Assembly: GCA_963700155.1 (NCBI GenBank)
Contig: OY969472.1
Coordinates: 66,058-130,057, forward strand
Source: an uncultured bacterium
GTDB taxonomy: Bacteria; Patescibacteriota; Dojkabacteria; J137
Length of the DNA: 64,000 nucleotides
Direction: 5' to 3'
The notes under the pieces were generated by a model, which saw nothing but the letters and a program-made list of their open reading frames with translations, was not told the origin of the DNA and ran no database searches. Shown piece by piece: positions 5,042-28,048 of the stretch (its first letter is position 1; each line of letters opens with the position of its first letter). The translations under genes and the position numbers were made by a program.

Positions 5042-5081
5042 AATAATTGTTTAATATATATTAGATATATTATACAATTTA

Positions 5082-5642: not shown

Positions 5643-5655
5643 ATAATAAAAAAAC

Positions 5656-5671: not shown

Positions 5672-5953
5672 TTTGAATTTAACTTAATTAATTCTTATAG
5701 CGCTAAATACCTCCCATAGCTTATCTTTCCTAAAATGAGGACAAGAATGAGAGAAATAATTTTGTTTAAAGAATTTTTATTCATTATTTTGTTGCTTATT
5801 ATTAATAACGAAACAGGACGATTATATTTTAAAGTATTTTATATTTCAAGATAAAAATTATCTATTTTTCAACTATTTTATATTTATCTATAGACATTTT
5901 AAGTACTTTTTAATAAACTCTGATTGTTAATATTCAAATTAGTAAAAGAATTT

Positions 5954-7378: not shown

Positions 7379-7427
7379 TGTAAAATAATTTTCATTATTA
7401 TGTGTTCATAGCTATTATTTTGAAATA

Positions 7428-8060: not shown

Positions 8061-8077
8061 TATTAAAATTTACTCTT

Positions 8078-9058: not shown

Positions 9059-9061
9059 AAA

Positions 9062-13478: not shown

Positions 13479-14927
13479 CTAATCAAACCTTGGGAAAAGA
13501 ATTATAGTTTCTTGTTCATCCAAAGCATTTTTTGCCTTCACAGAACTATCAGGAATTATTGGAGAATATAACTCTATCACTTTATCTAAGAGATATCCTA
13601 AACTATAAAGAGTTGTTACAATTTTGTTTTCATCTTTTTCAAGCCAAGGTTTGTTTTCATCAATATATTTATTTCCATACGAACATAAATCATTCACAAC
13701 TTGTATAGCTTCAAATATCTGATAATTTTCAAAATACTCTTCAAATCTTTTAACTTCTTTATCTACTATTATTTTTAGTTCATCATCAACTGACTCTAAA
13801 TCAGTTAATTTTATTGTTTTCCTATTTGCTAGATGAATTACCCTATTCAAAAGATTTCCAAAATTATTTCCTAAATCTGAATTATATTTAGTTTCTAATC
13901 TTTCAAAATTAAAATCACCATCATTTCCTAATTGAAATTCTGAAAGTAATGCATATCTGACTGCATCAACAGTATATTTTTGTGATAATTCAACAGGATC
14001 AATTGCATTATTATTACTCTTCCCTATTTTCTGTCCATTTACTGTAAAGAATCCTTGAACGATTACATTTTGCGGTAGCTCATACCCTGCAGACTTTAGC
14101 ATTGCTGGCCATAAAATAGCATGGAATTTAATTATATCTTTACCAACTAAATGATGCGCTGCCGGCCAGAACTTTTTATAGTAATCTTTTGCTTTAAATT
14201 CTGGAAACTGAAGCACCGACAAATAATTCGGCAGCGCATCATACCAGACATAAATAGTTTGTGATTCATCAAACGGAACTTTCACACCCCAAGAAACATT
14301 TGCTCTTGTAACAGGAATATCTTTTAAGCCTGCTTTGATTAAACCATGAACATAAGAAGACCATTTCTCAGGTTTAACAAATTCGGGATTTTCTTCATAA
14401 TACTTTAAAAGCCAATCCTGATACTTAGAAAGTTTAAAATAATAATTTTTTTCTTTTGTATATACTGGTGTTTTTGTAGGATGGTTAGGACATTTTCCAT
14501 CAATCAAATCATCTTCATTATAATAGGCTTCACAACTTTCACAATACCATCCTTCATATTCACCTTCATAAATATCACCGTTATCATAAGATTTTTGGAT
14601 TAATTCTTGAGCAAATTTTTCATGTTCAGGATCAGTTGTTCTTACAAAATAGTCGTTTGAGATTTTTAATTCTTCCCAAATTTTTTGAAATTCAGCTGCA
14701 TAATAATCAACATATTCTTTTGGTGACTGGTTGTTTTCTTTTGCTTTTTTTGCAATATTTCCACCATGTTCGTCTAAACCGGTTAAAAAGAAAACATTTT
14801 CATTTCCTAATTTGTTTCGATAGTATCTTGCAATTGAGTCTGCAATAAAGACGTCATAAGCTGTTCCTATGTGAGGAAGTCCTGTTGGATAAAATATCGG
14901 TGTTGTAATGTAAAAGTTATCGTTCAT
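13479..14927 (-). CDS. metG: methionyl-tRNA synthetase (minimal form without C-terminal tRNA-binding domain)
   Basis: PHIGTAYDVFIADSIARYYR (HIGH region), zinc knuckle CESCEAY...CPNH, KIGKS (KMSKS variant). Confidence 0.9.
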   Translation of the reverse strand: MNDNFYITTPIFYPTGLPHIGTAYDVFIADSIARYYRNKLGNENVFFLTGLDEHGGNIAKKAKENNQSPKEYVDYYAAEFQKIWEELKISNDYFVRTTDPEHEKFAQELIQKSYDNGDIYEGEYEGWYCESCEAYYNEDDLIDGKCPNHPTKTPVYTKEKNYYFKLSKYQDWLLKYYEENPEFVKPEKWSSYVHGLIKAGLKDIPVTRANVSWGVKVPFDESQTIYVWYDALPNYLSVLQFPEFKAKDYYKKFWPAAHHLVGKDIIKFHAILWPAMLKSAGYELPQNVIVQGFFTVNGQKIGKSNNNAIDPVELSQKYTVDAVRYALLSEFQLGNDGDFNFERLETKYNSDLGNNFGNLLNRVIHLANRKTIKLTDLESVDDELKIIVDKEVKRFEEYFENYQIFEAIQVVNDLCSYGNKYIDENKPWLEKDENKIVTTLYSLGYLLDKVIELYSPIIPDSSVKAKNALDEQETIILFPRFD

Positions 14928-14970
14928 TTTTAAAGTAAGTAAAATTTAATATTAAAATAATCTTATAAAT

Positions 14971-15396
14971 TCATAATTCTTTGTCCGAGGTAATTCTAGT
15001 AATAATTGATAGACCTTTATCTGGATCTTCTTGATATATTTTAAATGTAGCACCATTCCATCTAAAATAAAAATCGTTACTTTTATTTGAAGCTATCCTT
15101 CTTACCAAATATAACCATTCATTATAACTATAAATTGATAAATCTACTTCTGCATTACTTGCATTAGATAATTGGATATTACATATCTCAAGCGGCATTT
15201 GAACTGATCCGGTACCTCTAATCCGATAAGAACATCGATATACTTTATCAAATAAAATATAAAAAGGTGGATTATATTTATTAATATCACTATTAGAAAT
15301 GTTCTGCTGTTCTAATGCAGAGATATATTCATTAATAATTCTTATTGTTGATTCTATATCTACCTCAAAGTTACTCCAATTGTTAATGTTTTTCAT
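14971..15396 (-). CDS. hypothetical protein
   Basis: the ORF-track N-terminus translates the terminator T-run from a TTG start; a start at the internal Met (MKNINNW) is more plausible. Confidence 0.3.
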   Translation of the reverse strand: MKNINNWSNFEVDIESTIRIINEYISALEQQNISNSDINKYNPPFYILFDKVYRCSYRIRGTGSVQMPLEICNIQLSNASNAEVDLSIYSYNEWLYLVRRIASNKSNDFYFRWNGATFKIYQEDPDKGLSIITRITSDKEL

Positions 15397-15451
15397 ATTT
15401 TTATTATATGATTTACTAAAAAGTTTTGAATAATAAAAGTAAAAGTGAATA

Positions 15452-15479
15452 TAAAAAAATCCCAATTTCTTGGGATTTA
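15452..15479 (-). terminator. rho-independent terminator on the minus strand between the island and the host gene
   Basis: AAATCCCAA-TTTC-TTGGGATTT stem followed by T7 on the minus strand. Confidence 0.45.
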
Positions 15480-15634
15480 AGATTCATATAGGTATGAATA
15501 TAAATCCCTTAGTTGGGAACAGACATCATAATAAAGAATTTTTGTGATTTAGTAATATTCATATTAAGAATTTTATCAGATGAAATTGTTATAGACAAAT
15601 TTTATTAGCTATTTTAAAGATTCAATAGCGAAAA

Positions 15635-15652
15635 GGGGGATTTTCATCCCCC
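15635..15652 (-). terminator. GC hairpin GGGGGA-TTTTCA-TCCCCC after the stop of the truncated paralog, marking the left edge of the island
   Basis: 6-bp GC stem, then UUUUCG on the minus strand. Confidence 0.4.
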
Positions 15653-15661
15653 TTTTCTAAA

Positions 15662-15871
15662 CTATCCTTTCTGAAGAGTTTCCTCTTCACTAATGATTTC
15701 AACAGGCCCATCTGCTGATTCGAGGAACCTCTTAGGTTTCTCAGGTAGATGATTTTTCCTCTTCAACTCGGATTCGTCTTCAGCAAGATTGTCCCAAAAA
15801 GTACTTACCTTTAGTTTTACCCATTCAACCAGAAGTTGATAGAGCAAATTAGGGACTATAATGCAGACCAC
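15662..15871 (-). pseudogene. truncated copy of the island membrane-protein family (C-terminal 69 aa only)
   Basis: aligns with the C-terminal tails of 16097-16621 and 17853-18329 (EKPKRFLESADGPVEII versus EETPKNDLVWHEESLEII); the upstream reading frame runs about 20 further codons, then stops where the sequence becomes AT-rich. Confidence 0.45.
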
Positions 15872-15948
15872 TGTTATAAGCAGCGGAAGTTCAGGGAAAA
15901 CCTTACCTACCGCATAAATAATGAGATTAAATTACTGTTAAGAGCATA

Positions 15949-15974
15949 AAGAATGGTTTAGTTTTAAAAGAACT
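15949..15974 (-). promoter_or_regulatory. island promoter-like box, copy a (plus strand AGAATGGTTTAGTTTTAAAAGAAC)
   Basis: one of seven copies of TTTTAAAGAAC, each 40-200 nt upstream of a minus-strand unit. Confidence 0.4.
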
Positions 15975-16010
15975 TTAGTACTAAATAATTTTTTACATTA
16001 GCACTTAACT

Positions 16011-16073
16011 TTTACCGTTTCGTCTTACCAATTACTTGGAAGACTCTTCAGTCCAGCTTCGCTGGAGACGGTC
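16011..16073 (-). ncRNA. hammerhead ribozyme, type III topology (HHR1)
   Basis: on the minus strand: GACCG-GUC | UCCAGC-GAA-GCUGGA | CUGAAGA | GUCUUCC-AAGUAAUU-GGUAAGAC | GAAA | CGGU; all core positions present. Confidence 0.7.
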
Positions 16074-16074
16074 A

Positions 16075-16091
16075 GGGGGATTTTATCCCCC
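16075..16091 (-). other. GC hairpin GGGGGA-TTTTA-TCCCCC between the stop codon of the 174-aa gene and HHR1
   Basis: 6-bp stem; no U-run; abuts the 5' arm of hammerhead stem III. Confidence 0.4.
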
Positions 16092-16096
16092 TTTCC

Positions 16097-16621
16097 CTAA
16101 ACCATACCTTTCTCCAATCTTTCGTCGATTGTGGCGTCAACCACGAGGAGACTCTCTCCATTCCAATGGAGATCTTCGTTCTTCGGCTTCTCTTCGTTCT
16201 TATCCTTCTCAGGTTCCATTGGGACAAGATATTTCCCAACCCAATGGTAGCGTACTGGTTGATTCTCGTTTTTCTTTTTTTCCTCGTTTCCAGAATTCTC
16301 CCACTTCAATACCCAGGTTAAGATAAGCCGTGGTCCATCAATTACCAAGTTATAGCACAGCAATACCATCACCATTGGTAATAAATCAAACATCCAATGA
16401 TTAAGGTATAGGTCGAGTAGGTGTATTACGAACACCATCATAGGGATACCTATCTTGAGCCATCCCCACACATCTTCTCTTGTTTCATTTTTAAACCAGA
16501 AATCGGTGAAAAAATCGCCAAATAGAACGCCAAAAACGATAAAAAAAAGGACAGCCAGTATCACGTAGATTACTTTCCCGACGACTACAACAACGACTTT
16601 GGCAATACGTTTTACAGACAC
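16097..16621 (-). CDS. island membrane protein family member (174 aa), 2-3 TM helices plus K/E-rich C-terminal tail
   Basis: GTG start 7 nt after AGGAGGG; GC-rich codon use; paralog of 17853-18329. Confidence 0.5.
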   Translation of the reverse strand: MSVKRIAKVVVVVVGKVIYVILAVLFFIVFGVLFGDFFTDFWFKNETREDVWGWLKIGIPMMVFVIHLLDLYLNHWMFDLLPMVMVLLCYNLVIDGPRLILTWVLKWENSGNEEKKKNENQPVRYHWVGKYLVPMEPEKDKNEEKPKNEDLHWNGESLLVVDATIDERLEKGMV

Positions 16622-16661
16622 TTTGATTCCCTCCTTTGCGGGTTGAATATCTTGAGAAATT

Positions 16662-16686
16662 AGAATGGTTTAGATTTTAAAAGAAC
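16662..16686 (-). promoter_or_regulatory. island promoter-like box, copy b (AGAATGGTTTAGATTTTAAAAGAAC)
   Basis: near-identical to copies a and d; 41 nt upstream of the 16621 start. Confidence 0.4.
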
Positions 16687-16942
16687 AATAAGTATTAAAT
16701 AAAAAATTTTACATTAATACTAATTCTTATTTTATTATATCATAAAAAATATATAATGTATATATCGTGTATTAATTAGAGTTTATCAAATGTTTTAGGA
16801 GAAACAAATATCTGCCCTCAAACAACATCCCGATAAAATCAAGATCCCTACCGTGTTTAAGGGCATATATTTACCTACGAATTATACCATTCAGAGTGTA
16901 TTTTAATATTTTTGGACTGTAGGGAAGTCCAATATTATTTTA

Positions 16943-17003
16943 CAAACCTTTCGTCTTACCAAATATGGAAGACTCATCAGTCCCGATTATCGGGAGAGGT
17001 TTT
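16943..17003 (-). ncRNA. hammerhead ribozyme, type III topology (HHR2)
   Basis: on the minus strand: AAACC-CUC | UCCCG-AUAA-UCGGGA | CUGAUGA | GUCUUCC-AUAUUU-GGUAAGAC | GAAA | GGUUU. Confidence 0.7.
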
Positions 17004-17009
17004 GGCGGG

Positions 17010-17387
17010 ATTCATATAGACTTTAACTAAAGTATCCCGCCAATTTACGCCACAGAGTGAATCATTTTGATATCTCCTCTAGAATCGAACATCTGGGCAA
17101 AAGCCCTTTGATCATTCACTTTAGCTAGTGAGACTAAAGTACTCAATAACTCCTTCGATGTTCCATCTTAGGTAGTTGATCAGGTCAAGTTACTGACCCT
17201 ATTGAGTTTGCACTAATATTTTTAGTACTATCGCATCGGCCCCAGAGAATTAGCTAACTCCGTACCGACTTTGCGCACAGGCAGTTTGTGATTTAACACA
17301 GCAGAGGGCTACTAACCACGATTTGAGTAACTAACCCAAACCAACATCTGCACTTATACCCTGTGAATTTTGTAATTCCCTCGAGAA
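17010..17387 (-). ncRNA. ORF-free structured segment between the 90-aa gene and HHR2 (3' UTR or independent ncRNA)
   Basis: GC-rich, no ORF of 60 aa or more; several hairpins (GGGC-AAAA-GCCC, GGTCA-AGTTAC-TGACC, ACTTTAG...CTAAAGT). Confidence 0.3.
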
Positions 17388-17660
17388 TTATTTCAAAGTT
17401 AACTCCTTGTATCTACGGATTCCCTGCACAACGCCTCTATAGAAGCAATCTCCAGCGGGATACCACTGGAGTGAGTCCTGTTCACGCATCTCAATCTTGA
17501 GATACGTTTCGAGTCCCCCATGGTCCTCCACGATGACCAGGAATACTACATGACCCCGTGGGTCTTCAACCAGAAACTCGCAGTATTGACCTGCGAGGTC
17601 AAGGTCGAGCTTTTGAAGCTCGACTGCCGCCGCAATTTCGAACCTTGAGTATTTATTCAT
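17388..17660 (-). CDS. island soluble protein, 90 aa, unknown function
   Basis: ATG 5 nt after GGAGGAG; GC-rich; no motif recognised. Confidence 0.45.
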   Translation of the reverse strand: MNKYSRFEIAAAVELQKLDLDLAGQYCEFLVEDPRGHVVFLVIVEDHGGLETYLKIEMREQDSLQWYPAGDCFYRGVVQGIRRYKELTLK

Positions 17661-17681
17661 CTTCTCCTCCACAGAGAACTA

Positions 17682-17697
17682 CATGCCAAATGGCATG
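17682..17697 (-). promoter_or_regulatory. palindrome CATGCC-AAAT-GGCATG in the 5' leader of the 90-aa gene
   Basis: 6-7 bp inverted repeat about 25 nt upstream of the start; same element upstream of two other island genes. Confidence 0.45.
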
Positions 17698-17750
17698 AGC
17701 TTATAGACATACATCTACAAACTGCTGCCATCTAACAATTCGATAGTATA

Positions 17751-17763
17751 AATTTTTAAAGAC
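17751..17763 (-). promoter_or_regulatory. island promoter-like box, copy c (AATTTTTAAAGAC)
   Basis: immediately downstream (minus sense) of HHR3; 91 nt upstream of the 17660 start. Confidence 0.35.
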
Positions 17764-17821
17764 CCAGTTTCGTCTTACCAAAATTTGGAAGACTCATCAG
17801 TCAGGCTAAGCCTGAGACTGT
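17763..17821 (-). ncRNA. hammerhead ribozyme, type III topology (HHR3)
   Basis: on the minus strand: CACAG-GUC | UCAGGC-UUA-GCCUGA | CUGAUGA | GUCUUCC-AAAUUUU-GGUAAGAC | GAAA | CUGGG. Confidence 0.7.
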
Positions 17822-17842
17822 GGAGAGGAATTTCACCTCTCC
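17822..17842 (-). other. GC hairpin GGAGAGG-AATTTCA-CCTCTCC between the stop codon of the 158-aa gene and HHR3
   Basis: 7-bp stem abutting the 5' arm of hammerhead stem III. Confidence 0.4.
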
Positions 17843-17852
17843 GATTTTGACT

Positions 17853-18329
17853 TTATTTCTTTTTTCTAAACCATCCTTTCTGAGGATCTTCGTCCTCCTC
17901 TATGATCTCAAGCGACTCTTCGTGCCACACAAGATCATTTTTGGGGGTTTCTTCGTTTTTCTTTTTCTTCTCTTTCTCCTCTTTATCCTCTGGAATCTTC
18001 TCCCAGAATCTAAAAAGAAGAATCCTGACTCCATCAACCAGGAGTTGACCTACCATGTAGGTCGCTAACATGATTATTAAAGCTTGGATTACGACTTGCA
18101 CTAAGTCATAATTCATGGGATTAATTGAATTCGTGAACATTATTATTGCTATTGCCCCGATAATAAGGGGTAATACCAATTTGAAAAAAAAGATTGAGGA
18201 GGTATTGCCGTGTAGCATCCACCAGTCCCAATCACCAAAGAATAAAACAGAAAATACCCTCCCCAAATTCTTCTTGGAAAGTCTGATATAGTTGTAAAAT
18301 TTTCGTAGATCCCGACGAGTGATCATCAT
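17853..18329 (-). CDS. island membrane protein family member (158 aa), 3 TM helices plus K/E-rich C-terminal tail (holin-like topology)
   Basis: paralog of 16097-16621 (shared LFGD...W, LLVDGVRIL, EETPKNDLVWHEESL motifs); SD AGGGAG. Confidence 0.5.
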   Translation of the reverse strand: MMITRRDLRKFYNYIRLSKKNLGRVFSVLFFGDWDWWMLHGNTSSIFFFKLVLPLIIGAIAIIMFTNSINPMNYDLVQVVIQALIIMLATYMVGQLLVDGVRILLFRFWEKIPEDKEEKEKKKKNEETPKNDLVWHEESLEIIEEDEDPQKGWFRKKK

Positions 18330-18413
18330 TTACTCCCTAGTAGAAAAATTGAACGAATTGTCATAATCGACATTCTAAGAACTTTGAGTACTCAAAATGC
18401 CGACTATGACTTA

Positions 18414-18437
18414 AGATGGTCTAGATTTTTAAAGAAC
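18414..18437 (-). promoter_or_regulatory. island promoter-like box, copy d (AGATGGTCTAGATTTTTAAAGAAC)
   Basis: 85 nt upstream of the 18329 start. Confidence 0.4.
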
Positions 18438-18472
18438 TTTATATTAATCCCAATGTAAAAGCATAAAAGGTT

Positions 18473-18496
18473 TCTCCCCTGATTTCTCAGGGGAGA
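18473..18496 (-). terminator. perfect hairpin TCTCCCCTGA-TTTC-TCAGGGGAGA downstream of the 337-aa gene
   Basis: 10-bp stem; U-rich tract follows on the minus strand. Confidence 0.4.
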
Positions 18497-18685
18497 GATA
18501 ACGAAATTTCAGACTTTAGTCTATCTCCAATTGGAGATTGTACCTGCACAAGGCAGGATTTTTCTGATCTATTCTTTTCTCAGGTTTATAACGGGTCTGC
18601 TAACCGTACAGTTCAGCCTGGTAAGGTTAGACTAAAACTGTCCCTAAGCTTTATTCAAGTTTAGGTTTGAGATATGAAATTTCAC

Positions 18686-19699
18686 CTAACGTCGATAGAT
18701 CATCCCAGACCCAAAGGCTTTGGGTGGGGATATCTTCATCCCCATTCGAGCGAATACACTTTCAAGGCGTGTTCGCTCTGACTCAAGTTTGAAGTTATCT
18801 CCCCCGGTGGGGAAGAACACAAAAACCTGAGTTTTGGGGTTTTGTTCAAGGATGACACGAATATCATCCTCTCCCGCTCCAACTTGAAGCGGAAACGACG
18901 TTGAAAACGGCTGGGTTTCCACCCAGCCGATAATTTCTGAGAGCGGCTTCAAGCCGCTCGAAGTGTAATCAGGGAGAGTGATGCGAACACCCTCTCCCTC
19001 CGTATAAATTGTCCAGATTCGTCCCTTCTCGCGGAGGGAAAACAGCTTTGCCCAAATCTGGGAATCGCTGCTCTGAGCTAGGACACTGGCGACGTACGAG
19101 TCCAACTCGTAGCCTCCAATGTCCATCCCAACCATACCCGCCGTGTAAGCGAATGCCCCCGCAGCTTGGCGGAGATAAGCGCCGGACACAATGAATGTGT
19201 CCGGCTCCCGTTCGAACCACTCAATGTGGTCGAACACGAACGGGGTCACGGGATCAACCGTGACCTTCAAAAAAGCTTGGTCGTGCTCAACCTGAGCACG
19301 ACCGTTTGCAAACCGGACAGCTTCAGCAGCGATTTTCATCGCTGCCTCCACCGCCCAGTTCGAGTCAGGGTCGTCCGCCCAGCGGGTGACCCATTCTTTC
19401 GAAATCCCAGCCTGGCGTTCGCCAGGCACGGAAACAATAACCCCCCAGCGGAGCTGGGAAGTATTGAGCCATTGCGGCATCGCTGCCGCAACGACTCCCG
19501 GGGTATTTTGCATGACAACCGCCTCGGCAGAGGCGGTAATTGCTTGCTGCTCGATCTCGGTCAACTGACCGATAACTTCAGCTTTGTTGAGCGCGAACGT
19601 AACGTTCGCGCTTCCAACAACTTCGACTTGGATGTGGCCGAAGTCGGTCGCATGACGACCGACAACAAAGAACTTTTTGGTTTGAATTTCATTTGCCAT
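18686..19699 (-). CDS. island 337-aa protein, unknown function (strongly GC-biased codons)
   Basis: ATG preceded by GGGGAGGAG; no catalytic or structural motif recognised from sequence alone. Confidence 0.5.
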   Translation of the reverse strand: MANEIQTKKFFVVGRHATDFGHIQVEVVGSANVTFALNKAEVIGQLTEIEQQAITASAEAVVMQNTPGVVAAAMPQWLNTSQLRWGVIVSVPGERQAGISKEWVTRWADDPDSNWAVEAAMKIAAEAVRFANGRAQVEHDQAFLKVTVDPVTPFVFDHIEWFEREPDTFIVSGAYLRQAAGAFAYTAGMVGMDIGGYELDSYVASVLAQSSDSQIWAKLFSLREKGRIWTIYTEGEGVRITLPDYTSSGLKPLSEIIGWVETQPFSTSFPLQVGAGEDDIRVILEQNPKTQVFVFFPTGGDNFKLESERTRLESVFARMGMKISPPKAFGSGMIYRR

Positions 19700-19710
19700 T
19701 TTGAATCTCC

Positions 19711-19725
19711 TCCCCTTCGTGGGGA
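19711..19725 (-). promoter_or_regulatory. 5-bp GC hairpin overlapping the SD of the 337-aa gene
   Basis: minus strand UCCCC-ACGAA-GGGGA; the 3' arm is part of the GGGGAGGAG SD. Confidence 0.3.
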
Positions 19726-19741
19726 CTTAAAAGAACAGATT

Positions 19742-19759
19742 TCATGCCCATTGGCATGA
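19742..19759 (-). promoter_or_regulatory. palindrome TCATGCC-CATT-GGCATGA in the leader of the 337-aa gene
   Basis: 7-bp inverted repeat; a related TGCCA-A-TGGCA core at 19791-19801. Confidence 0.45.
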
Positions 19760-19900
19760 GTCAGAAAACAAATTTTTGCTTTCAAGCTACTGCCAATGGC
19801 AATCTTCTCTTTTTAGAGTTAGACATTGAAAATTTCGTTTGCAGTTATACTGCTACATTGAAATTAATATTTTATGAAGTTATTAAAATTAATTAATAAC

Positions 19901-19916
19901 TTGTTTTTTAAAGAAC
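19901..19916 (-). promoter_or_regulatory. island promoter-like box, copy e (TTGTTTTTTAAAGAAC)
   Basis: about 200 nt upstream of the 19699 start. Confidence 0.35.
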
Positions 19917-20113
19917 ATCTTCTTAAAAGAAGAGATTAATTTAAAAAGACTAAAATACCCTCTTATTTCAAGGTTCGAGAGGTGGTCTTTAGCCACCCCT
20001 CATTTGTATTCTACTTGATTACTAAAAAAACTTAAGTTTTCAAGTAGATAGACTTTAGACATTTTTCACTCGCACCTATTTCTAGGTTGCCTCTTTGTGA
20101 GTTTTTTGGTGGG

Positions 20114-20527
20114 TTAAAAAGATTCCACCTCATGAACTCCCCCAAGGGGGCTGCTAACCAGCCGGGTCGCCCCGACTGACTCAGCGATCCGATTCAGCCG
20201 AGGACTGACCTCGGCAATCCTCAAAAGGAGGTCACTCTTTTTGGGATCCTCCACAGGAGTATCCCAAAGTTCTTTTGCCTCCTCTAAGGTGTAGGGCATA
20301 CCGCCCTCCACCCTAATTTCGACGCCCACCCACTGGGCGTCGACCTCGAGGTATTTAACCTCGGCTTTGAATCCTTCCTTTAGGAAGGATTGCAAAACCT
20401 GTTCTTTCTTCGCCTGCATACCTTGCAGGCGAACGATCATACCCTCCAAGGTTTTTACACCTTCGAGAAAATCCCCCACCCTAACGGTGGGGTATAGACC
20501 GTCATCAAAGTGCATTGTTACTTTCAT
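20114..20527 (-). CDS. island soluble protein, 137 aa, unknown function
   Basis: ATG 5 nt after GGAGGAG; the ORF-track start at 20566 is the ATG inside the leader palindrome and is unlikely. Confidence 0.45.
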   Translation of the reverse strand: MKVTMHFDDGLYPTVRVGDFLEGVKTLEGMIVRLQGMQAKKEQVLQSFLKEGFKAEVKYLEVDAQWVGVEIRVEGGMPYTLEEAKELWDTPVEDPKKSDLLLRIAEVSPRLNRIAESVGATRLVSSPLGGVHEVESF

Positions 20528-20549
20528 TTTTCTCCTCCTCGGAGAATAT

Positions 20550-20568
20550 TCATGCCCGAATGGCATGA
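20550..20568 (-). promoter_or_regulatory. palindrome TCATGCC-CGAAT-GGCATGA in the leader of the 137-aa gene
   Basis: 7-bp inverted repeat; this leader is about 75% identical over 105 nt to the 90-aa gene leader. Confidence 0.45.
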
Positions 20569-20620
20569 GTATATAGACACAAATCTACATACTACTACCA
20601 TTCAGCAATTTGAAAGTACA

Positions 20621-20634
20621 AGTTTTTAAAGAAC
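20621..20634 (-). promoter_or_regulatory. island promoter-like box, copy f (AGTTTTTAAAGAAC)
   Basis: 94 nt upstream of the 20527 start. Confidence 0.4.
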
Positions 20635-20639
20635 ACTGC

Positions 20640-21350
20640 TTTCACAGAGGTTGATAAACTTTTTGATTTACCAACCTCTATTAAAGCTTTTAAGGACTGC
20701 CCTGCTCTCGCGGGGCTTTTGTCATTCGACTTACTTTAAGACTTTTCTCTTACACCTCGGCCACAACGGCTTGGAGGTAAATTTTGTAAATGCCGAAAAA
20801 CTCGGAATTTACTATTTAATATTTGTCTGCATTATATGCAGCACTTTGCTTCGGACAACTAATGTTACCCCCGACCATAATTGCATCTCTCCTATCACTT
20901 TTCGGAGAGAGGATTGAAAACTTTTTAAAATTCTCAATCCTCTCCCCGAAAATCGGGGAAAGGAAAGTCTTTGCTCAAGTGATAGTAACTTGAGACTACT
21001 ATCTTTTTAACCGGTTAACTGTACCTCGCTTTTACGAGACCACCAGTAATCTAACCGATCATCCAGATAATCAAGTATTTAAATACTTAACTACCTTGGT
21101 AGGGTAAGGTAACAAATATATAAATATTTGATTACCTAAATAGCTAGTTCGTACTCACATTTAAGTGAACCACCGAATTTAGCATTAAGCTTTTGTTTAA
21201 TGGAACAAAGCCTAAAAAACAAAAAAAGCTTAGCGTGACTTAAGATAATTCAATCTTAAACCTTGCTAAGCTTTCTAAAAAAACATATTATATTTTTAAT
21301 ATTAATATGTTCAAGCCAATAAGGTAGGATTTATTATCTTGAGCAAATAT
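20640..21350 (-). ncRNA. ORF-free, hairpin-dense segment of about 700 nt; candidate structured RNA with its own promoter box
   Basis: at least 10 stems of 6-9 bp (AGAGGTTG..CAACCTCT, TCTCTCC..GGAGAGA, GAGGATTGA..TCAATCCTC, CCCCGA..TCGGGG, CTCAAGT..ACTTGAG, TTAACCGGTTAA, AAGTATTTAAATACTT, GCTTAGC..GCTAAGC); box g at its upstream end; the only ORF (88 aa, plus strand) looks spurious. Confidence 0.3.
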
Positions 21351-21351
21351 T

Positions 21352-21366
21352 AAGTTTTAAAAGAGC
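21352..21366 (-). promoter_or_regulatory. island promoter-like box, copy g (AAGTTTTAAAAGAGC), no ORF downstream
   Basis: marks the right edge of the island; followed on the minus strand by the structured ORF-free segment. Confidence 0.3.
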
Positions 21367-21563
21367 ATTTATTACTTTAAAGATATTACTATTATATACC
21401 TAGATATATAATATGTCAATACATGGCAACAAATTTTATATATTTTGACATATCACCTATTCACCCTATCAATAAGGCTATCAACAAATCGACGCTGCAT
21501 TATTTACTATTTTTTCACCAATTAGTGATAGTTTTTATCAAAAATGAGTTAGAATAAATACAT

Positions 21564-23711
21564 ATGATACAAAAAAATAACAAACATCAACCTGATGAAA
21601 ATATTGAAACTCAGGTTGATTTAAAAAGAGAGTTGTTTAGTCTTATAAAATCCTCCATTCTTGCAAGAACTAAAGCTAATAGAATGGACTCATATGATAG
21701 TCAAGAAATTTTAAATGCAATTTTTCACCAATTTCCTCAGCTCAGAAGTGAACAATTGCTCCATAATCATCTTGAATGGAATATAAATGAAGTTGATTGG
21801 AACTCTTCAGATTACGTAAATTACTTTTATGGGAATCCTGAAAATTTAGATACAGTTGTTAAATTTATTACTGATAATATTTGGTCTATTCCATTTTTAA
21901 CACCTAATCTGATAAATGAAGCGAAGAAAGAAGATGTTATACCATCAACTATACAAATCTTATATTCAATAATAGAAAAACTCTTACAGCAAAGAAACAT
22001 TGAATCCGCAAAAACATTAAGCAAGAAAATTCTAGTTAATATAAATCTGCTAGTTGAGCTAGGTGGTCATATATGGGTAAATAAATTATTAGAAGCGATT
22101 TCACTACAGAATCATGATCTTTGGGTAAATATATACGGTATGAAAGAGGAAGAATATCAATATTATTTAGATTATCAGAAAAAGATTGAGGGTATTTATG
22201 AATTCAATTCACAAATTCGAAAGCTTGCAAAAGGTAGAATCAACAACTATTCAAGAGATGAAAATGGAGAATTGATTACAACACGCACCGATCATGAAAG
22301 CGAAATTTGGAGAATTGCTGGTAGGAATATACCTTTTATACAACCAGATGATGTACTAGAAAAAGATATCTCAGAAATATGGAGAAATTACGAACAAGAA
22401 CTAATTAATTATATTACTAAAATAAATAAAAGTGATCCTGGGTGGCAATTAATTATAACCGAAATAAATAAACTGGTAGAATATTTAGGAGATAAGGACA
22501 TCAGAGGTCTACACTTAGAATATCCTTTTTGTTTAAATACATTAAGGCAAAATATATTATCTGAATTTAAACGAAAGATTTATTACGACACAAAAACTCT
22601 ACCTGGGAAAACTCCAGCTCCTAAAGACGATAGAGGAAAATCTACGAATTTTCTTGCACAAAATTCAAGCCAAAATGTTTTTATAAGCTATCTGGCATTG
22701 CGACGCCTTATGTTCCCAGACGAAGATTTAGAAAATATAGATGTAAATTCCCCTCGAGCTCATTTAGATTTAGATAGCGTTTATGAAATAGCAAATTTTG
22801 AAGAATATTCAGAAAGCAAACAACTTGAAAGTACACTATATAGAAGAAATATGATATTAGAAATATTAAAAGAATTAAACCTGAATACCACTCAAATCTT
22901 TGAACTAGGCAGTGGGAGTGGTTGGCTTACAAAACAATTACACGATTCCCTACCTGAAGTCCCTATACACAGTCTGGAAATAAGTACTGACCAAATAAAT
23001 GCTGCAAAAAGATTTTTGAAAGATGCAATAGATAAAGAAAATATAACAATTTCCCAACTATCTTGGGACGAATTATCTAGTTGGGTTCCCTTTATAAATA
23101 GAAACAAGACAATTCCAGCAGTATTACTTTGGATGGGAAGAAGTGCTACACATGAAGAGAGTCAAGATTCCTTTATAGCAACGTTACTTAACTTTTCTAA
23201 GTTTATGGAAAATGGAGATTTTCTAATAATGGATATGCCTGATCCAAATACAGGAACATATATAAAACTAAGACAAAATATGGTTAATGCGTTCAATAAA
23301 ATTGGGGAAAATTTAGACCCAATTGTACACATCGAACTAGAAGATTTTGACTATTTGGTTGATTCACCTGATGGTGAACATAATTATAATAGATTTACAC
23401 CTTCCTATCAGAAACTATTGAAAATTTTTGAATTTATAGGATTAGAACCTCAAATTGTTACATTACCGGAGAATATTGGGAAATCAAACTTTAGGAACCT
23501 TGAACAAACTGATAAGATGGATAAATGCATTTTAGAAAGAGTAAATTCAACAGAATATACTAAACGATCAGATCATTCTAACGGATTAACTGATGAAGAT
23601 TATAATAATCGTAGAAATATGGTTTTTGTATTAAAAAAGACAAGAAATGTAGATAGTTTTATATTAAACAATAAGACAGCATTATTACAAACACCTGGAA
23701 GAAGATTATAA
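21564..23711 (+). CDS. multidomain protein with C-terminal class I SAM-dependent methyltransferase fold
   Basis: motif I ELGSGSGW in the C-terminal third; N-terminal 400 aa unassigned. Confidence 0.45.
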   Translation: MIQKNNKHQPDENIETQVDLKRELFSLIKSSILARTKANRMDSYDSQEILNAIFHQFPQLRSEQLLHNHLEWNINEVDWNSSDYVNYFYGNPENLDTVVKFITDNIWSIPFLTPNLINEAKKEDVIPSTIQILYSIIEKLLQQRNIESAKTLSKKILVNINLLVELGGHIWVNKLLEAISLQNHDLWVNIYGMKEEEYQYYLDYQKKIEGIYEFNSQIRKLAKGRINNYSRDENGELITTRTDHESEIWRIAGRNIPFIQPDDVLEKDISEIWRNYEQELINYITKINKSDPGWQLIITEINKLVEYLGDKDIRGLHLEYPFCLNTLRQNILSEFKRKIYYDTKTLPGKTPAPKDDRGKSTNFLAQNSSQNVFISYLALRRLMFPDEDLENIDVNSPRAHLDLDSVYEIANFEEYSESKQLESTLYRRNMILEILKELNLNTTQIFELGSGSGWLTKQLHDSLPEVPIHSLEISTDQINAAKRFLKDAIDKENITISQLSWDELSSWVPFINRNKTIPAVLLWMGRSATHEESQDSFIATLLNFSKFMENGDFLIMDMPDPNTGTYIKLRQNMVNAFNKIGENLDPIVHIELEDFDYLVDSPDGEHNYNRFTPSYQKLLKIFEFIGLEPQIVTLPENIGKSNFRNLEQTDKMDKCILERVNSTEYTKRSDHSNGLTDEDYNNRRNMVFVLKKTRNVDSFILNNKTALLQTPGRRL

Positions 23712-23728
23712 ATTTTTAGATAAACAAA

Positions 23729-24487
23729 ATGATTAATACAACAGATATTGGAATAACTGATAAAGCTTTTGAACTTTACTCAATACTTTTAAAAAATGGG
23801 CTCTCCACTGTTGGCTACTTAATAAAACAGTCTGGTTATAAAAGAGCAACAGTCTATAAAAACTTATATTCCTTAGAAAGTATCGGATTAATTACAAAAA
23901 TTGATGTTAAAAAAGTAATCAATTTTAAAGCAGAACCTCCCAAAAAATTACTTGAATTAGCAGAAAAAAAATATATTGACACAAGACGTGTCTTATCTGA
24001 TATTGAAGGTCTTTTACCTGATTTAAATTCTGATTATATTTTATCAACTGAAAAACCAATAGTTACAACATTTGAAGGTGTAAAAGGATTAAAAAAGATA
24101 TATGAAGATATGCTTTCCGAAAAAAAGGAAATATTTGCAATTTTACAACCAAGTATTGTTGAACCGGAATTATTTAACTGGCTAAATAAAAATTTTTTTA
24201 AAAGAAGAAAAAAATTAGGAATAAGAGTAAATGCATTAGTATCAACTGGTAGTTGGTCCACTGACTATGTAAAACAAACAGAAAAAGATGATATTGGTAA
24301 AACTAGGTTAGTTTCTAGTCAAAAATATCCTTTCAAACTTGAGATGGATATTTTTGGCGACAAGGTGGCTTTCATTAACTACAAAAAGGGCGAGCCTCTA
24401 ATTGGGATTATTATCCACAATCCTTTTATTGCAAAAACAATGAAAGCCACCTTTGATTTAGCTTGGTTAGGAGCAGCAGATAGTTAA
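23729..24487 (+). CDS. TrmB-like HTH transcriptional regulator
   Basis: N-terminal winged-helix segment (GYKRATVYKNLYSLESIGLI) plus a C-terminal effector-like domain. Confidence 0.45.
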   Translation: MINTTDIGITDKAFELYSILLKNGLSTVGYLIKQSGYKRATVYKNLYSLESIGLITKIDVKKVINFKAEPPKKLLELAEKKYIDTRRVLSDIEGLLPDLNSDYILSTEKPIVTTFEGVKGLKKIYEDMLSEKKEIFAILQPSIVEPELFNWLNKNFFKRRKKLGIRVNALVSTGSWSTDYVKQTEKDDIGKTRLVSSQKYPFKLEMDIFGDKVAFINYKKGEPLIGIIIHNPFIAKTMKATFDLAWLGAADS

Positions 24488-24507
24488 ATAGTTAGAAAAG
24501 AATTTAA

Positions 24508-24849
24508 TTACTGTTCATTAAGAGATAATACTGTAGGTTTATTATAACCTTTAACCTCATAAATAACCCCATTCCATTCAGTATAAACAATCCCGATATG
24601 ATCTTTTGTAAATCTATCCCTTGATATTTCACCCATAAATTTAAACCAAAGATAATTCTCAACATTTCTTTTATCATTTTTAATATACTCAGAATCTGGA
24701 ATATACCTTGTAGCAAATGTTCTACCATCACCTATAACTAACCATTTCAACAGTGAGTTAATATCTTTAAGAAAATATAGGGAATTAAGTTCACCTTCCC
24801 AATCGGGAGTATGCTCTTCTAACTCATAAATAGATTCTAAAGAAGACAT
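24508..24849 (-). CDS. hypothetical protein
   Basis: 113-aa ORF, no motif. Confidence 0.3.
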   Translation of the reverse strand: MSSLESIYELEEHTPDWEGELNSLYFLKDINSLLKWLVIGDGRTFATRYIPDSEYIKNDKRNVENYLWFKFMGEISRDRFTKDHIGIVYTEWNGVIYEVKGYNKPTVLSLNEQ

Positions 24850-24910
24850 ATCTTTAAATTAAAAGTTTCGCAGATATTAACACTTTATTTTGACAGTTGT
24901 AAAGTCTAGA

Positions 24911-25339
24911 TTACTTTTTCCAGTCACATTTTTGCTGAACACATCTACATGAATATCCTAAATCTTTTGGCAAAGGTTGTGTTGGAGCAACACAAACTGA
25001 AACCGCTGGTTCATCTGTTCCACTTCCACAAATTTCAGAATTACATCCCATTACAGTACAATCAGAATCGATATTACAGGCTCCTTTTGTAGAACTCCCA
25101 TAGTATTCAGGAGTAGAAACAGGATTTTCTTGATTATAACTATTTCCATCTATATCGCACTTAACTGGCGAAGTAGCTATAATTGTTCCTCCAGCAGTTA
25201 CACACTCATCAAAGGTGTTTATTGAATTATTAGCTACCTCTTCTTTTTGATTTGCAAAATAAAGTACTACAATAGAAAAAAGAGTTCCTAAGATTATTAA
25301 TATAAAAAATATTAATAAAAATCTTTTATTTTCATCCAT
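24911..25339 (-). CDS. membrane-anchored cysteine-rich secreted protein
   Basis: N-terminal TM helix; 11 Cys in the C-terminal 90 aa (CDIDGNSY...CNIDSDCTVMGCNSEICGSG...CRCVQQKCDW). Confidence 0.35.
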   Translation of the reverse strand: MDENKRFLLIFFILIILGTLFSIVVLYFANQKEEVANNSINTFDECVTAGGTIIATSPVKCDIDGNSYNQENPVSTPEYYGSSTKGACNIDSDCTVMGCNSEICGSGTDEPAVSVCVAPTQPLPKDLGYSCRCVQQKCDWKK

Positions 25340-25378
25340 CTCATTAAAATTAATTTATAAACTTACTATCATTTTATA

Positions 25379-28048
25379 TTAATAGTTTATCGATATCCAT
25401 TTTTTTAAACAATCAAGAACTTCATCTTTTGAAAGGTCTGCTCTTCTCATAATCATCTTTTCATTATTACCTTCTATACCATATCGGACTACAATTTCAG
25501 TATCTCCTCCATTCTCAAAACATTTTTTTAAATTTTGTAACTCACTTTCATCTGTTACACCTCGTATATCAATATTTAATTTTCTTGGTTGATGTAATGT
25601 GTTCCCATGTTCTACTTCATTTACTATAATTGATTTCCTATCGTCGCGAATATTTATTGTACCTCTGATAATTAAAGGTGTTGTTTCGAGAAGCAAATGT
25701 TGAATTTTTTCAAAAGTTCGGGGAAATACAACTGCATCAGCTTTACTTGTGTCATCTTCAAGTGTAAGTATCGCCATCCTTTGATTATCTTTCTTAGTAA
25801 AAGTATATCTTACATTAGAAATAGTACATAGAACTTTAATATTCTTATTGTGTTCTAATTCATCTATTGTGTTTAATTTAACAAATTCTGGGAAAATTCT
25901 TGTCCATCCAAATCTCTGTAAGGGATGAGATGAGATAAAAATTCCTAAAAGCTCTTTTTCCCATTTTATTTTCTCGTTCTCTCTAACAGGATCAACTTCG
26001 GGTAAAGTAGTTGCATTAACTTTTCTTACAACGGGTTCTTCATCACCACCTAAAAGACTAAATAAGTCAGTCTGATTTTCATCAACAGCTTTTGATTTTA
26101 TATTCGCCTTTTGTAAAACTTCTGGCATTACAGTTAAAAGCGCATTCCTATCCCCAAATTCATCTAATGCACCTGAACGTATTAAACTTTCTAATGATCT
26201 TTTATTAATAATATCTGTTCCAACTCTTACTACTAAATCATCCATGCTTGTATATACTCCATTTTCTTCTCTTTCTTTTATAGTCGTTTGACAAACTTTA
26301 ATCCCAACATTTTTTATAGCACCTAACCCAAATCGGATAGAATCTTCGTTTTCAGGGGAGAAGTAAACTTTAGAAGTATTTATATTTGGTGGCAAGACTT
26401 TATAACCCATTCTTTTAGCTTCTTGAATATCAATTGTAACCCTATCTAAATTTTCAAGGTCAGCATGCATCAAAGCTGTCATAAATTCTAAAGGGAAATG
26501 TGCTTTTAAATATGCACATTTATATGCCAACACAGCATACCCAGCAGCATGAGCTTTATTGAATCCATAATCAGCAAATGGCAAAAGCATTTCCCAAAGT
26601 TTATCTGCTACTGCCTGCGAAAAGCCGTTTTTTACGATTCCTTCTTTAAATTTTGGCTCTTCTTTCTTCATTACATCAAGTTTCTTTTTCCCGACGGCTT
26701 TTCGCAGGCTATCAGCTGCACCCATATTATAACCTGCTAAATCTACAGCAACTCTCATCAACTGCTCTTGATAAATCATATATCCATTTGTAACATCAAC
26801 AATATGTTTAAGTTCAGGAATTGGATATTCAGCTTTTTTTAATCCATGTTTTATTTTTATATAGTCAGGGATGTATTTCATGGCACCTGGACGATATGCA
26901 GCAACCATAAAACAGATATCCTCTTGTGTTTCAGGTCTAAGTTCTTTTAGATATTGCTGCATAGGTGGTGACTCAAACTGGAATACACCAATTGTTTCAC
27001 CTTTAGAAAATATGTCAAAGGTTTTTTTATCATCTGAAGGAATATTATAAAAATCTACATTATTTCCATCTTTTCCATTAATTAACTTAAGAGCATAATC
27101 AATAATACCTAATGTTCTTAAACCCAAGAAATCAAATTTCATTAAACCTAACTCTTCAATATATGGACCTTCAAACTGAGTTACAGTTCTACCCTCACCT
27201 CCTCGCTCTTTTTGAAGTGGAACATAGTTTATTATTGGACCTGGAGTAATAAGATGTCCGCAAGCATGTACTGAAGAATGTCTCCCCATATTCTCAATCT
27301 TGCGAACATAATTAGCAAGTTCCTGAAGCTTAGGATTTCCATTTATTATCGAAGAAAATTCTTCATCTGTCTCCATCATCTTGTCTATTGGATAAACTTT
27401 TCCAAATAAAACGTGAACCATTTTAGAAAGCTTATCAGCTAATACTAAATCGATACCCATTACTCTTGCAACATCTCTAATCGCAGCTTTAGTTTTTAAT
27501 CTTCCAATGGCTATAATCGCAGAAACTGCATCTTCACCATATTTTTCTTGAGCATATGCAATAACCTCATCTCTTCTTGTATCTTGAATATCCATATCGA
27601 TATCTGGAGGTGAAGGCCTTTCAGGGTTTAAAAATCTTTCAAAATAAAGTTCCCACTTTAAAGGTTCAACCTCAACAATTTCAAGACAATGAGCAACAAC
27701 ACTTCCTGCAACAGAACCTCGTACTCCCATAAGGATTCCCTGGCTTGCTGACCATTTCATTAAGTCAGAAACTACAAGAAAATAATCATCGTATCCTTTG
27801 TCATGAATAACACCTAATTCATATTCAATTCTTTCAAATAAATCATCACCTAAATAATCTTTTAAAGTTTCATAATTTGCATTATCAATTTCTTGAAGCA
27901 TAAAATCATTAGTTAATGACTTTTTCTCATGACGATATTTAGAATCTTTATATTTTATTATTGCACCTTGATAAGTCTGCTTTTTTAAGTTCATCTCCTG
28001 CAGTGCTTCCTTTTGGTACATTCCAAAACTTTGGCTGAACTCTGTCAA
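25379..28048 (-). CDS. dnaE: DNA polymerase III alpha subunit, polymerase core and C-terminal part (in a different frame from the PHP part)
   Basis: DnaE palm/fingers motifs (GYDDYFLVVSDLM, FDFLGLRTL, KAHAAGYAVLAYKCAYLKAHFP). Confidence 0.8.
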   Translation of the reverse strand: MTEFSQSFGMYQKEALQEMNLKKQTYQGAIIKYKDSKYRHEKKSLTNDFMLQEIDNANYETLKDYLGDDLFERIEYELGVIHDKGYDDYFLVVSDLMKWSASQGILMGVRGSVAGSVVAHCLEIVEVEPLKWELYFERFLNPERPSPPDIDMDIQDTRRDEVIAYAQEKYGEDAVSAIIAIGRLKTKAAIRDVARVMGIDLVLADKLSKMVHVLFGKVYPIDKMMETDEEFSSIINGNPKLQELANYVRKIENMGRHSSVHACGHLITPGPIINYVPLQKERGGEGRTVTQFEGPYIEELGLMKFDFLGLRTLGIIDYALKLINGKDGNNVDFYNIPSDDKKTFDIFSKGETIGVFQFESPPMQQYLKELRPETQEDICFMVAAYRPGAMKYIPDYIKIKHGLKKAEYPIPELKHIVDVTNGYMIYQEQLMRVAVDLAGYNMGAADSLRKAVGKKKLDVMKKEEPKFKEGIVKNGFSQAVADKLWEMLLPFADYGFNKAHAAGYAVLAYKCAYLKAHFPLEFMTALMHADLENLDRVTIDIQEAKRMGYKVLPPNINTSKVYFSPENEDSIRFGLGAIKNVGIKVCQTTIKEREENGVYTSMDDLVVRVGTDIINKRSLESLIRSGALDEFGDRNALLTVMPEVLQKANIKSKAVDENQTDLFSLLGGDEEPVVRKVNATTLPEVDPVRENEKIKWEKELLGIFISSHPLQRFGWTRIFPEFVKLNTIDELEHNKNIKVLCTISNVRYTFTKKDNQRMAILTLEDDTSKADAVVFPRTFEKIQHLLLETTPLIIRGTINIRDDRKSIIVNEVEHGNTLHQPRKLNIDIRGVTDESELQNLKKCFENGGDTEIVVRYGIEGNNEKMIMRRADLSKDEVLDCLKKWISINY

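Follow-up and report, generated by a model that had tools for sequence, protein, structure and literature searches.

In the genome of an uncultured bacterium of the Dojkabacteria (assembly GCA_963700155.1), we analysed a 64,000-nucleotide (nt) window of contig OY969472.1 (positions 66,058 to 130,057; coordinates below are those of the window) and, within it, a 711-nt segment, 20640-21350, that is free of credible open reading frames (ORFs). This segment is best explained as the non-coding lead-in to the transcription unit furthest to the right in a foreign island, read from the minus strand. It carries no coding signal, folds locally and far more stably than expected, shows a bias of wobble pairs towards the sense strand, lies between two copies of a box that recurs through the island, is accompanied by promoter and terminator motifs, and has a parallel in the architecture of an island from a second genome. 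Our leading reading, held tentatively and with less than even confidence, is that it might be a composite structured leader/spacer RNA of an island made of hammerhead-and-box cassettes. An earlier note on this DNA, made from the letters alone, had proposed a large structured RNA at this place, and it was right that the segment is non-coding and extremely structured; the segment is real and unusual, but the evidence does not single out one discrete, ornate non-coding RNA (ncRNA) gene.

As the note had stated, there is no credible ORF in the segment: the longest minus-strand frame reaches 41 amino acids (aa), each minus-strand frame is interrupted by 13-25 stops, and the G+C content (GC) by codon phase is flat (0.34/0.35/0.35, as against about 0.6/0.3-0.4/0.55-0.6 in the real ORFs of the island). 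The stems that had been picked out by eye are all present, among them TTAACCGGTTAA at 21007-21018, AAGTATTTAAATACTT at 21073-21088, TCTCTCC/GGAGAGA at 20886-20910, CCCCGA-AAA-TCGGGG at 20944-20958 and the long-range GCTTAGC...GCTAAGC at 21228-21271, and nine perfect Watson-Crick hairpins with stems of at least 6 base pairs (bp) were counted altogether. The high GC ascribed to the segment applies to 20640-21100 (38.6%), whereas 21101-21350 is host-like (26.8%). Among the five structured ORF-free spacers of the island, this one is the longest.

The excess of structure is extreme. Over the 711 nt, the minus strand folds at -243.8 kcal/mol, compared with -156.4±6.2 kcal/mol for dinucleotide shuffles (z = -14.1), and the plus strand at -206 compared with -131.8 kcal/mol (z = -11.4). 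Restricting pairs to a span of 150 nt gives -239 instead of -244 kcal/mol, so that longer-range pairs contribute less than 5 kcal/mol; because this limit costs so little, the predicted fold resembles beads on a string rather than an ornate structure. The sole long-range helix has 9 bp, and by our estimate chance alone would yield about one of that kind in 711 nt.

On which strand might this structure matter? Counted over the whole fold, G.U pairs number 29 for the minus strand and 15 for the plus strand; with helices defined identically on both strands, 10 transition-type mismatches are G.U on the minus strand and 1 on the plus strand (p ~ 0.01). In these predicted folds, nothing argues more strongly than this wobble bias that the helices matter as RNA of the sense (minus) strand. 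By contrast, the helices within the island ORFs are nearly all perfect Watson-Crick and show no strand bias. Antisense pairing of the segment with the leaders of five genes was no better than with shuffled sequences (z = -0.3 to -1.1).

We infer that the segment is transcribed and where its transcripts would end. Read 5′ to 3′ on the minus strand, the parts are as follows (SD, Shine-Dalgarno sequence; dG, predicted free energy).

21391-21419, minus strand: sigma-70-type promoter, TTGACA-17-TATAAT, which agrees with the consensus at 12 of 12 positions, as no other site in 6.3 kb does, and points into the segment.
21355-21366, minus strand: box f (GCTCTTTTAAAA), a variant of the island box with one mismatch.
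21277-21312, minus strand: T1, an AT-rich hairpin followed by U7, terminator-like, read from the sequence and present in predicted folds.
21214-21274, minus strand: T2, a long hairpin (AAAGCUUAGC...GCUAAGCUUU) of 12 bp with a 10-bp inner stem, followed by U7GU6, terminator-like.
20998-21212, minus strand: chain of local hairpins (21212-21186 and 21177-21148) with a branched domain (21144-20998).
20887-20967, minus strand: longest hairpin, with a 25-bp core helix (20952-20899), dG -45.0 and mean pair probability 0.93.
20737-20884, minus strand: branched domain (20884-20760) and small hairpin (20752-20737) of the predicted fold.
20638-20716, minus strand: GC hairpin (20716-20699) and terminal 15-bp hairpin (20687-20638), the latter abutting box g.
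20623-20634, minus strand: box g (GTTCTTTAAAAA), the start of the next cassette.
20528-20632, minus strand: leader of the 137-aa gene, directly after box g and upstream of ATG 20527.

As predicted motifs, T1 and T2 both show the stable hairpin and U-run, on the transcribed strand, of an intrinsic terminator; a simple terminator scan listed neither of them, the stem of T1 being too poor in G-C pairs. The domain around T2 (21319-21179) has a dG of -40.4 and a mean pair probability of 0.84. Further along, the branched domain 21144-20998 contains a 14-bp helix (21096-21065) with three G.U pairs. The longest hairpin reaches only -33.1 in its plus-strand version, and its 25-bp helix, which holds three G.U pairs on the minus strand, has A.C mismatches if read on the plus strand; as modelled, this helix would be long enough for an RNase III-type substrate. 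A sigma-70-like site (TTGTCC-16-TATAAT, 20858-20831) lies inside the branched domain 20884-20760.

Next to the promoter, a plus-strand TTGACA at 21445-21450 mirrors the one that faces the island, the two standing head to head (ATATGTCAA ... TTGACATAT, 21391-21450). This arrangement suggests an operator shared between the island and a divergent gene for a 715-aa protein, which has a region with S-adenosylmethionine-methyltransferase motifs and resembles several methyltransferase families weakly and non-specifically, bacterial Hen1 among them (E = 0.002).

The boxes that bracket the segment belong to a set of seven same-strand copies with the invariant core TCTTTWAAAA, which are confined to the island; in the rest of the window the motif occurs at chance level. 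Their positions, all on the minus strand, are:

15962-15973, minus strand: box.
16675-16686, minus strand: box.
17753-17764, minus strand: box.
18426-18437, minus strand: box.
19905-19916, minus strand: box.
20623-20634, minus strand: box g.
21355-21366, minus strand: box f.

From right to left the spacings are 732, 718, 1479, 673, 1078 and 713 nt. The earlier note had taken the box for a promoter; copies do bracket the segment, but the box is not sigma-70-like and is not used elsewhere in the window. Nor does it look like an integron attC site, since the box reads GTTCTTTWAAAA, with pyrimidines at the required RRR of GTTRRRY, no inverted partner and no integrase. One exact match to GTTCTTTAAAAA lies outside the island in DNA of host composition (40430-40441, minus strand) and is probably due to chance.

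What follows the boxes is also shared. The 77 nt of the leader of the 137-aa gene at 20556-20632 are 81% identical to 17686-17762, in front of the unrelated 94-aa gene, and the leader contains a CAUGCC...GGCAUG hairpin (20550-20568) that is found again before the 337-aa gene (19742-19759). Just ahead of ATG 20527 there is an SD-sequestering hairpin (20530-20546, UUCUCC-GAGGA-GGAGAA). From its sequence, this 77-nt leader looks like a common translational control element. The roughly 45 nt after box f are likewise paralogous to the box and leader of the 174-aa gene (21327-21359 against 16640-16672, 73%), and here no gene follows.

The island itself occupies about 5.8 kb (~15630-21400) and has 41% GC with local peaks of 54%, in a genome of 29% GC and a window that averages ~29-30%; half of it (50%) is coding. 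All six of its ORFs, its three hammerheads and its seven boxes are on the minus strand, the ORFs and hammerheads being:

15871-15662, minus strand: 69-aa ORF, island gene.
16621-16097, minus strand: 174-aa ORF, island gene.
17672/17660-17388, minus strand: 94/90-aa ORF, island gene.
18329-17853, minus strand: 158-aa ORF, island gene.
19699-18686, minus strand: 337-aa ORF, whose N-terminal 165 aa form a conserved domain of unknown function; hairpin-saturated.
20527-20114, minus strand: 137-aa orphan ORF with a strong SD; the mechanical ORF has 150 aa and a start further upstream.
17823-17762, minus strand: hammerhead 1, type III, from the Rfam search.
17003-16943, minus strand: hammerhead 2, type III, from the Rfam search.
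16074-16012, minus strand: hammerhead 3, type III, from the Rfam search.

The cassettes of the island are built to one plan, in which the box TCTTTWAAAA comes first, then a structured leader, next a small orphan ORF preceded by a strong SD, and last a hairpin and/or a type III hammerhead. The SDs of the real genes are of the GGAGG type and stand 5-9 nt from the start. No island protein belongs to any Pfam, PHROGs, PADLOC or NCBIfam family, and by the same databases the island has no Rep, integrase, relaxase, morphogenesis or phage hallmark gene. The segment does lie in a mobile-looking region, as the earlier note had supposed; the genes flanking the island include MetRS, a DnaE fragment and a TrmB-like regulator. 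The only att-like flanking repeat is an AT-rich 11-mer common to both sides, which is not significant. An independent assembly (L044, Logan run ERR11571143, 11,257 nt) corresponds to 14464-25720 of the window at 99.98% identity and includes both junctions; because it spans them, the island is not an assembly chimera. Segment 20640-21350 is identical in the two assemblies, without strain variation. They differ only at 16082 and 16084, both in the loop of a GGGGGAU...AUCCCCC hairpin just upstream of hammerhead 3, the stem of which is unaltered. Three island genes encode paralogous membrane proteins (17853-18329, 16097-16621 and 15662-15871, minus strand) with 33-35% identity and Lys/Glu-rich C-terminal tails; the 69-aa member lacks an SD and the N-terminal half and is probably a remnant. 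The profile of these paralogues matches only itself among 5.8 billion protein clusters.

The hammerheads score 38.3, 34.3 and 32.3 bits with Rfam, below the gathering score of 48.5. They are nevertheless convincing, because copies of their helix II recur in other metagenome-assembled genomes (MAGs) and covary. All three have an identical long helix II (GUCUUCCA...UGGUAAGAC) and are spaced 820 and 931 nt apart, and an exact-pattern scan for this helix found seven further copies in MAG contigs (L007-L013), most of them from the Candidate Phyla Radiation (CPR) and labelled Dojkabacteria, Saccharibacteria (two), WWE3, Microgenomates, another bacterial MAG and one Bacillota. In an alignment of 13 such hammerheads, pairing holds in 96.7% of cells, and both partners vary in 13 of the 17 pairs; a custom model built from these island-type sequences and run with filters off recovers 16008-16079, 16939-17008 and 17758-17828 at 76-80 bits. 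Each hammerhead comes after a gene and a hairpin, the genes being those of 158 aa, of 94 aa with its 3′ untranslated region, and of 174 aa. The island has the feature of the arrays in prophages, at least two same-strand hammerheads flanking small variable ORFs, and all these proteins are orphans. We also considered a dead hammerhead within the segment and rejected it, as the custom covariance model gave none at E ≤ 10 with filters off.

A sister island was recognised in an uncultured Saccharibacteria MAG (L012, positions 4070-8000; read from 8 kb of the 159.6-kb contig CAZEMP010000002.1), with 45-54% GC in a host of 28%. Its type III hammerheads number at least four, at intervals of 730-850 nt. 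A canonical GTTCCTTWAAAT box stands 3-5 nt downstream of two of these four (~5117 and ~7497), variant or non-box sequence (TGTTTTTTAATAAAA; TGTTAAACAC) comes after the remaining two, and at ~6773 there is a GTTCCTTAAAAT box on its own. In its cassettes, ORF-free leaders of 130-520 nt precede small SD-led genes of 70-123 aa. Two of these leaders are long and strongly folded, one of 524 nt with z = -11.1 on the sense and -5.1 on the antisense strand, the other of 434 nt with z = -6.2; each runs straight into the SD-ATG of a small gene. Sequence similarity between the two islands is limited to the hammerhead and the box. A viral contig (L038, IMGVR_UViG_3300008219_000041, 400-1800) holds another ribozyme-punctuated array, in which small genes are separated by hammerhead-like and other repeated structured motifs; it is unrelated in sequence to the island of the window.

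Structure is not peculiar to the non-coding segment. A 150-nt sliding z-score reveals strong excess structure on both strands over ~18700-21320, with values near 0 in the host flanks, and the segment is the ORF-free portion of a hyper-structured block of 2.7 kb. Counts of perfect Watson-Crick hairpins (stem of at least 7 bp, loop 3-9) were compared with block shuffles:

337-aa ORF: 14 hairpins observed, 0.4 expected.
137-aa ORF: 5 observed, 0.1 expected.
Segment: 4 observed, 0.3 expected.
Rest of the window: ~1 per kb observed, ~1 per kb expected.

The densities are thus 13.8 and 12.1 per kb in the 337-aa and 137-aa ORFs and 5.6 per kb in the segment; in the two ORFs there is a perfect hairpin of 7-11 bp about every 65-80 nt. 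When synonymous codons are shuffled and the protein is kept, the 337-aa ORF gives z = -14.9 and the 137-aa ORF z = -10.5, compared with -4.5, -3.3 and -0.7 for other island ORFs and -1.4 and +0.2 for two host genes. The codon-phase GC of the 137-aa ORF is 0.63/0.34/0.58, and in the 337-aa ORF even the codons for the invariant GRH motif form a perfect 8-bp hairpin. Since these adjoining ORFs are even more hairpin-saturated, structure does not discriminate an ncRNA gene here. The other ORF-free spacers of the island are all structured on the sense strand as well (19700-20113, z = -6.4; 18330-18685, z = -6.0), including the second stretch reported in the earlier note (17004-17387), though only modestly (z = -3.3).

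The N-terminal 165 aa of the 337-aa protein have 14 distant relatives, none in a similar island. This family of 15 sequences has invariant G-R-H, Q, P, R, N and TVDP..F residues; the domain is predicted by AlphaFold with a pLDDT above 90 and has no match in Pfam, in PHROG or, by sequence or fold, in the PDB. Some relatives are found among early-type genes of phage-like contigs, with Mom, SSB, Dam or a serine recombinase. We asked whether hairpin saturation is a trait of this gene family and rejected the idea, as two of the ten genes examined show it and eight homologues do not. A second saturated block, with 25 perfect stems of at least 7 bp in 2 kb, is found at 7247-9188 of a contig with 64% GC (L001, JGI 3300003465), where it spans a homologue of the 337-aa gene together with the 800 nt upstream, which are poor in ORFs. 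The same contig has a hairpin element of ~75 nt repeated behind two tiny ORFs (7587-7660 and 7872-7945), without an Rfam match.

How might a leader/spacer RNA of this kind work? The AT-rich, promoter-proximal part (21391-21214) would supply the sigma-70 promoter and box f and then T1 and T2, which would end an RNA of ~170 nt or serve as an attenuator or insulator. The following chain of ~570 nt (21212-20638) would form about a dozen independent, very stable hairpins, the 14-, 15- and 25-bp helices among them, and would reach right up to box g and, with it, the conserved leader that sequesters the SD of the 137-aa gene. Such hairpins might act at the RNA level as terminators or pause sites, barriers, exonuclease blocks or sites of double-strand-specific processing, and would insulate, stabilise and gate the expression of downstream mRNAs that are themselves hyper-structured. 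This leader/spacer reading fits the leaders of the Saccharibacteria island and the view in the literature on processing by clustered hammerheads.

Several observations weigh against it. Efficient termination at T1 and T2 would leave the 570 nt beyond them dependent on read-through or on a further promoter. The role of the box is putative. The wobble asymmetry consists of 11 positions, one control stretch of host DNA is likewise skewed (78 to 48), and the sister island as a whole lacks such an asymmetry. The saturation of the ORFs implies that some process or selection makes hairpins regardless of local function; therefore, individual hairpins of the segment may have no specific role. Finally, the searches found no homologues of the segment, so that neither covariation nor a sign of purifying selection speaks for any single hairpin. 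A blastn search of 50,697 phage and 72,556 plasmid records gave no match. In viral contigs an 18-mer from the 25-bp hairpin had one hit, a chance match of 20 nt, and the leader pattern had none, while the 24 hits of a metagenome scan with the leader-hairpin and SD pattern all proved to be coding motifs of no relation. For the 137-aa protein, the sole match among 5.8 billion clustered proteins and among 1.8 billion representatives is the protein itself, and the GTDB genome collection contains no relative. The comparison with Rfam that the earlier note had recommended gave no family match in the segment even at E ≤ 10 (permissive filters, 15000-22000), and Rfam 15 at gathering score gave only two tRNAs in the whole window. 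The sub-threshold hits, to miRNA-precursor, rox1, SscA and SprD models, scored 17.6-31.5 bits against gathering scores of 58-100 and fell mostly over long hairpins, the longest (20887-20967) matching only miRNA-precursor models, a generic effect of long hairpins.

Could the segment instead be a gene of its own? A stand-alone structured ncRNA of ~710 nt, with box f as promoter, hairpin 20687-20638 as 3′ end and a function of its own as scaffold, decoy or ribozyme, seems unlikely to us, although it would account for several facts: the segment fills a cassette slot (732 nt from box to box, compared with 718, 713 and 673 nt in other cassettes), has the strongest fold z-score among the island spacers, is biased towards sense-strand wobbles and lacks coding signal, and phage-like regions are known to harbour large ncRNAs, GOLLD and ROOL for instance. 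A single RNA of 700 nt is nevertheless doubtful because T1 and T2 come less than ~180 nt from the promoter and 50-150 nt past box f. The absence of an Rfam family, a chain of local hairpins to which long-range pairs add no energy, and adjoining ORFs with equal or stronger structure all argue in the same direction, as does the lack of a homologue in phage and plasmid records, by pattern in viral contigs, or through any island protein; comparable ORF-free stretches of the sister island lead straight into an SD-ATG and hence are leaders there. We regard it as similarly unlikely that the block 18686-21350 is a by-product of a hairpin-generating process, such as templated correction of quasi-palindromes, or of generic selection, such as resistance to single-strand nucleases, with the ORF-free part as a spacer or decayed cassette. 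That saturation is regional and densest in the ORFs, that ORF stems are almost all perfect and without strand bias, that box f and its first 45 nt copy the promoter-leader region of the 174-aa gene with no gene behind, and that regional saturation recurs in the unrelated, high-GC, phage-like contig L001 and is missing from eight other homologues would all be explained. However, the helices of the segment are longer (14-25 bp) and tolerate wobbles only in the sense strand, which looks like purifying selection at the RNA level, and neither a trace of a former gene (flat codon-phase GC, 13-25 stops per frame) nor, with the sensitive model, a hammerhead remnant is seen. A bolder proposal, which we hold to be quite doubtful, joins the segment and the two saturated genes (18686-21350) into one hyper-structured RNA of an undescribed, CPR-specific class of hammerhead-and-box cassettes; the ORF-free part would then represent a large RNA domain of a new, non-coding kind, perhaps a decoy, a scaffold proof against nucleases or a signal for packaging or export, and codon choice would be subordinate to folding.

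Two further explanations concern the DNA itself and very small proteins. Either strand folds much more stably than its shuffles, perfect palindromes are frequent among the stems and the segment stands at one end of a foreign island, as one might expect if a mobile replicon used it at the DNA level (as a single-strand origin, an Frpo-like single-stranded DNA promoter, a packaging signal or a recombination site). This is improbable given that the segment has no iterons or tandem repeats and the island no DnaA box, no Rep, integrase, relaxase or morphogenesis gene and no significant flanking direct repeats; a single-stranded DNA promoter would moreover need its fold on the template (plus) strand, and the wobbles favour the minus strand 10 to 1. 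As for micro-proteins, the segment has two starts only with an SD-like motif, both on the minus strand: TTG 20937 (41 aa), with GGAG 4 nt upstream, and ATG 20878 (20 aa), with AGGAG 10 nt upstream. The first is buried in the 25-bp helix, and the plus-strand ORF of 88 aa starts with TTG, has no SD and is antisense to every island gene. Codon periodicity appears nowhere in the segment and real island genes all use GGAGG-type SDs at 5-9 nt, so that coding by any of the three is very improbable.

More surprising than the segment are the adjoining hairpin-saturated coding sequence and the recurrence, in CPR genomes, of an architecture of hammerhead, box and long leader. If it is true that RNAs are built here to be almost fully double-stranded, this could be a strategy against host RNases or RNA-targeting defence in ultra-small episymbiotic bacteria, or one by which the element is handled as RNA in another manner, and the island would offer a compact object of 5.8 kb for tests. 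Should mutation have produced the hairpins as a by-product, the segment would be common spacer DNA, and the lesson would be that ncRNA genes of islands like this one are not recognised from fold z-scores alone.

Compared with known systems, the segment resembles GOLLD, ROOL, HEARO, OLE and raiA RNAs in size (500-800 nt), absence of an ORF, mobile context and high predicted stability. It differs from them in having a chain of local hairpins instead of conserved multi-stem junctions or pseudoknots, no family of homologues, and terminator-like hairpins inside it; it matches none of their covariance models, nor those of riboswitches, twister, pistol or hatchet. Single-stranded RNA phages (Leviviricetes) have genome-wide secondary structure, and the block in the island is like them in that coding and non-coding sequence alike is saturated with stable hairpins beyond what the proteins require. 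The island, however, has no homologue of replicase, maturation or coat proteins and resides in a bacterial DNA chromosome (two assemblies), with bacterial promoters and SD sites. Phage early operons have structured leaders and processing hairpins, for example the RNase III sites of the T7 early region and lambda-type promoter-proximal terminators that need read-through. The segment shares with these a strong promoter followed by terminators and long double-stranded hairpins before small early-type genes, and its 25-bp helix would have the right length for RNase III; it has no sequence relationship to them, no identifiable antiterminator protein or nut/put-like element, and its 570-nt run of ~12 hairpins is far longer than those sites.

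The island also resembles the clustered hammerheads of prophage-like regions, which flank small non-conserved ORFs and for which a role in processing long transcripts has been proposed (Perreault et al. 2011, PMC3088659; review by de la Pena et al. 2017, PMC6155905). Processing into gene-length RNAs is the accepted guess for those clusters, and the island agrees with them in its same-strand hammerheads, 820-930 nt apart between small orphan genes, and in its foreign-looking context. It departs from them in its apparently CPR-type host, in the absence of phage structural or integrase genes and in a segment that has no ribozyme. The role of clustered hammerheads in prokaryotes has been an open question since 2011, and to this question the island and its Saccharibacteria counterpart add a conserved box by the ribozymes, long and strongly folded non-coding leaders and, in this genome, an arrangement of codons bent to hairpins in the extreme (z about -15 against synonymous shuffles). 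The clusters as described are reported with neither a conserved box by the ribozyme nor long hyper-structured ORF-free leaders or hairpin-saturated coding sequences, whereas the island has the box and both of these.

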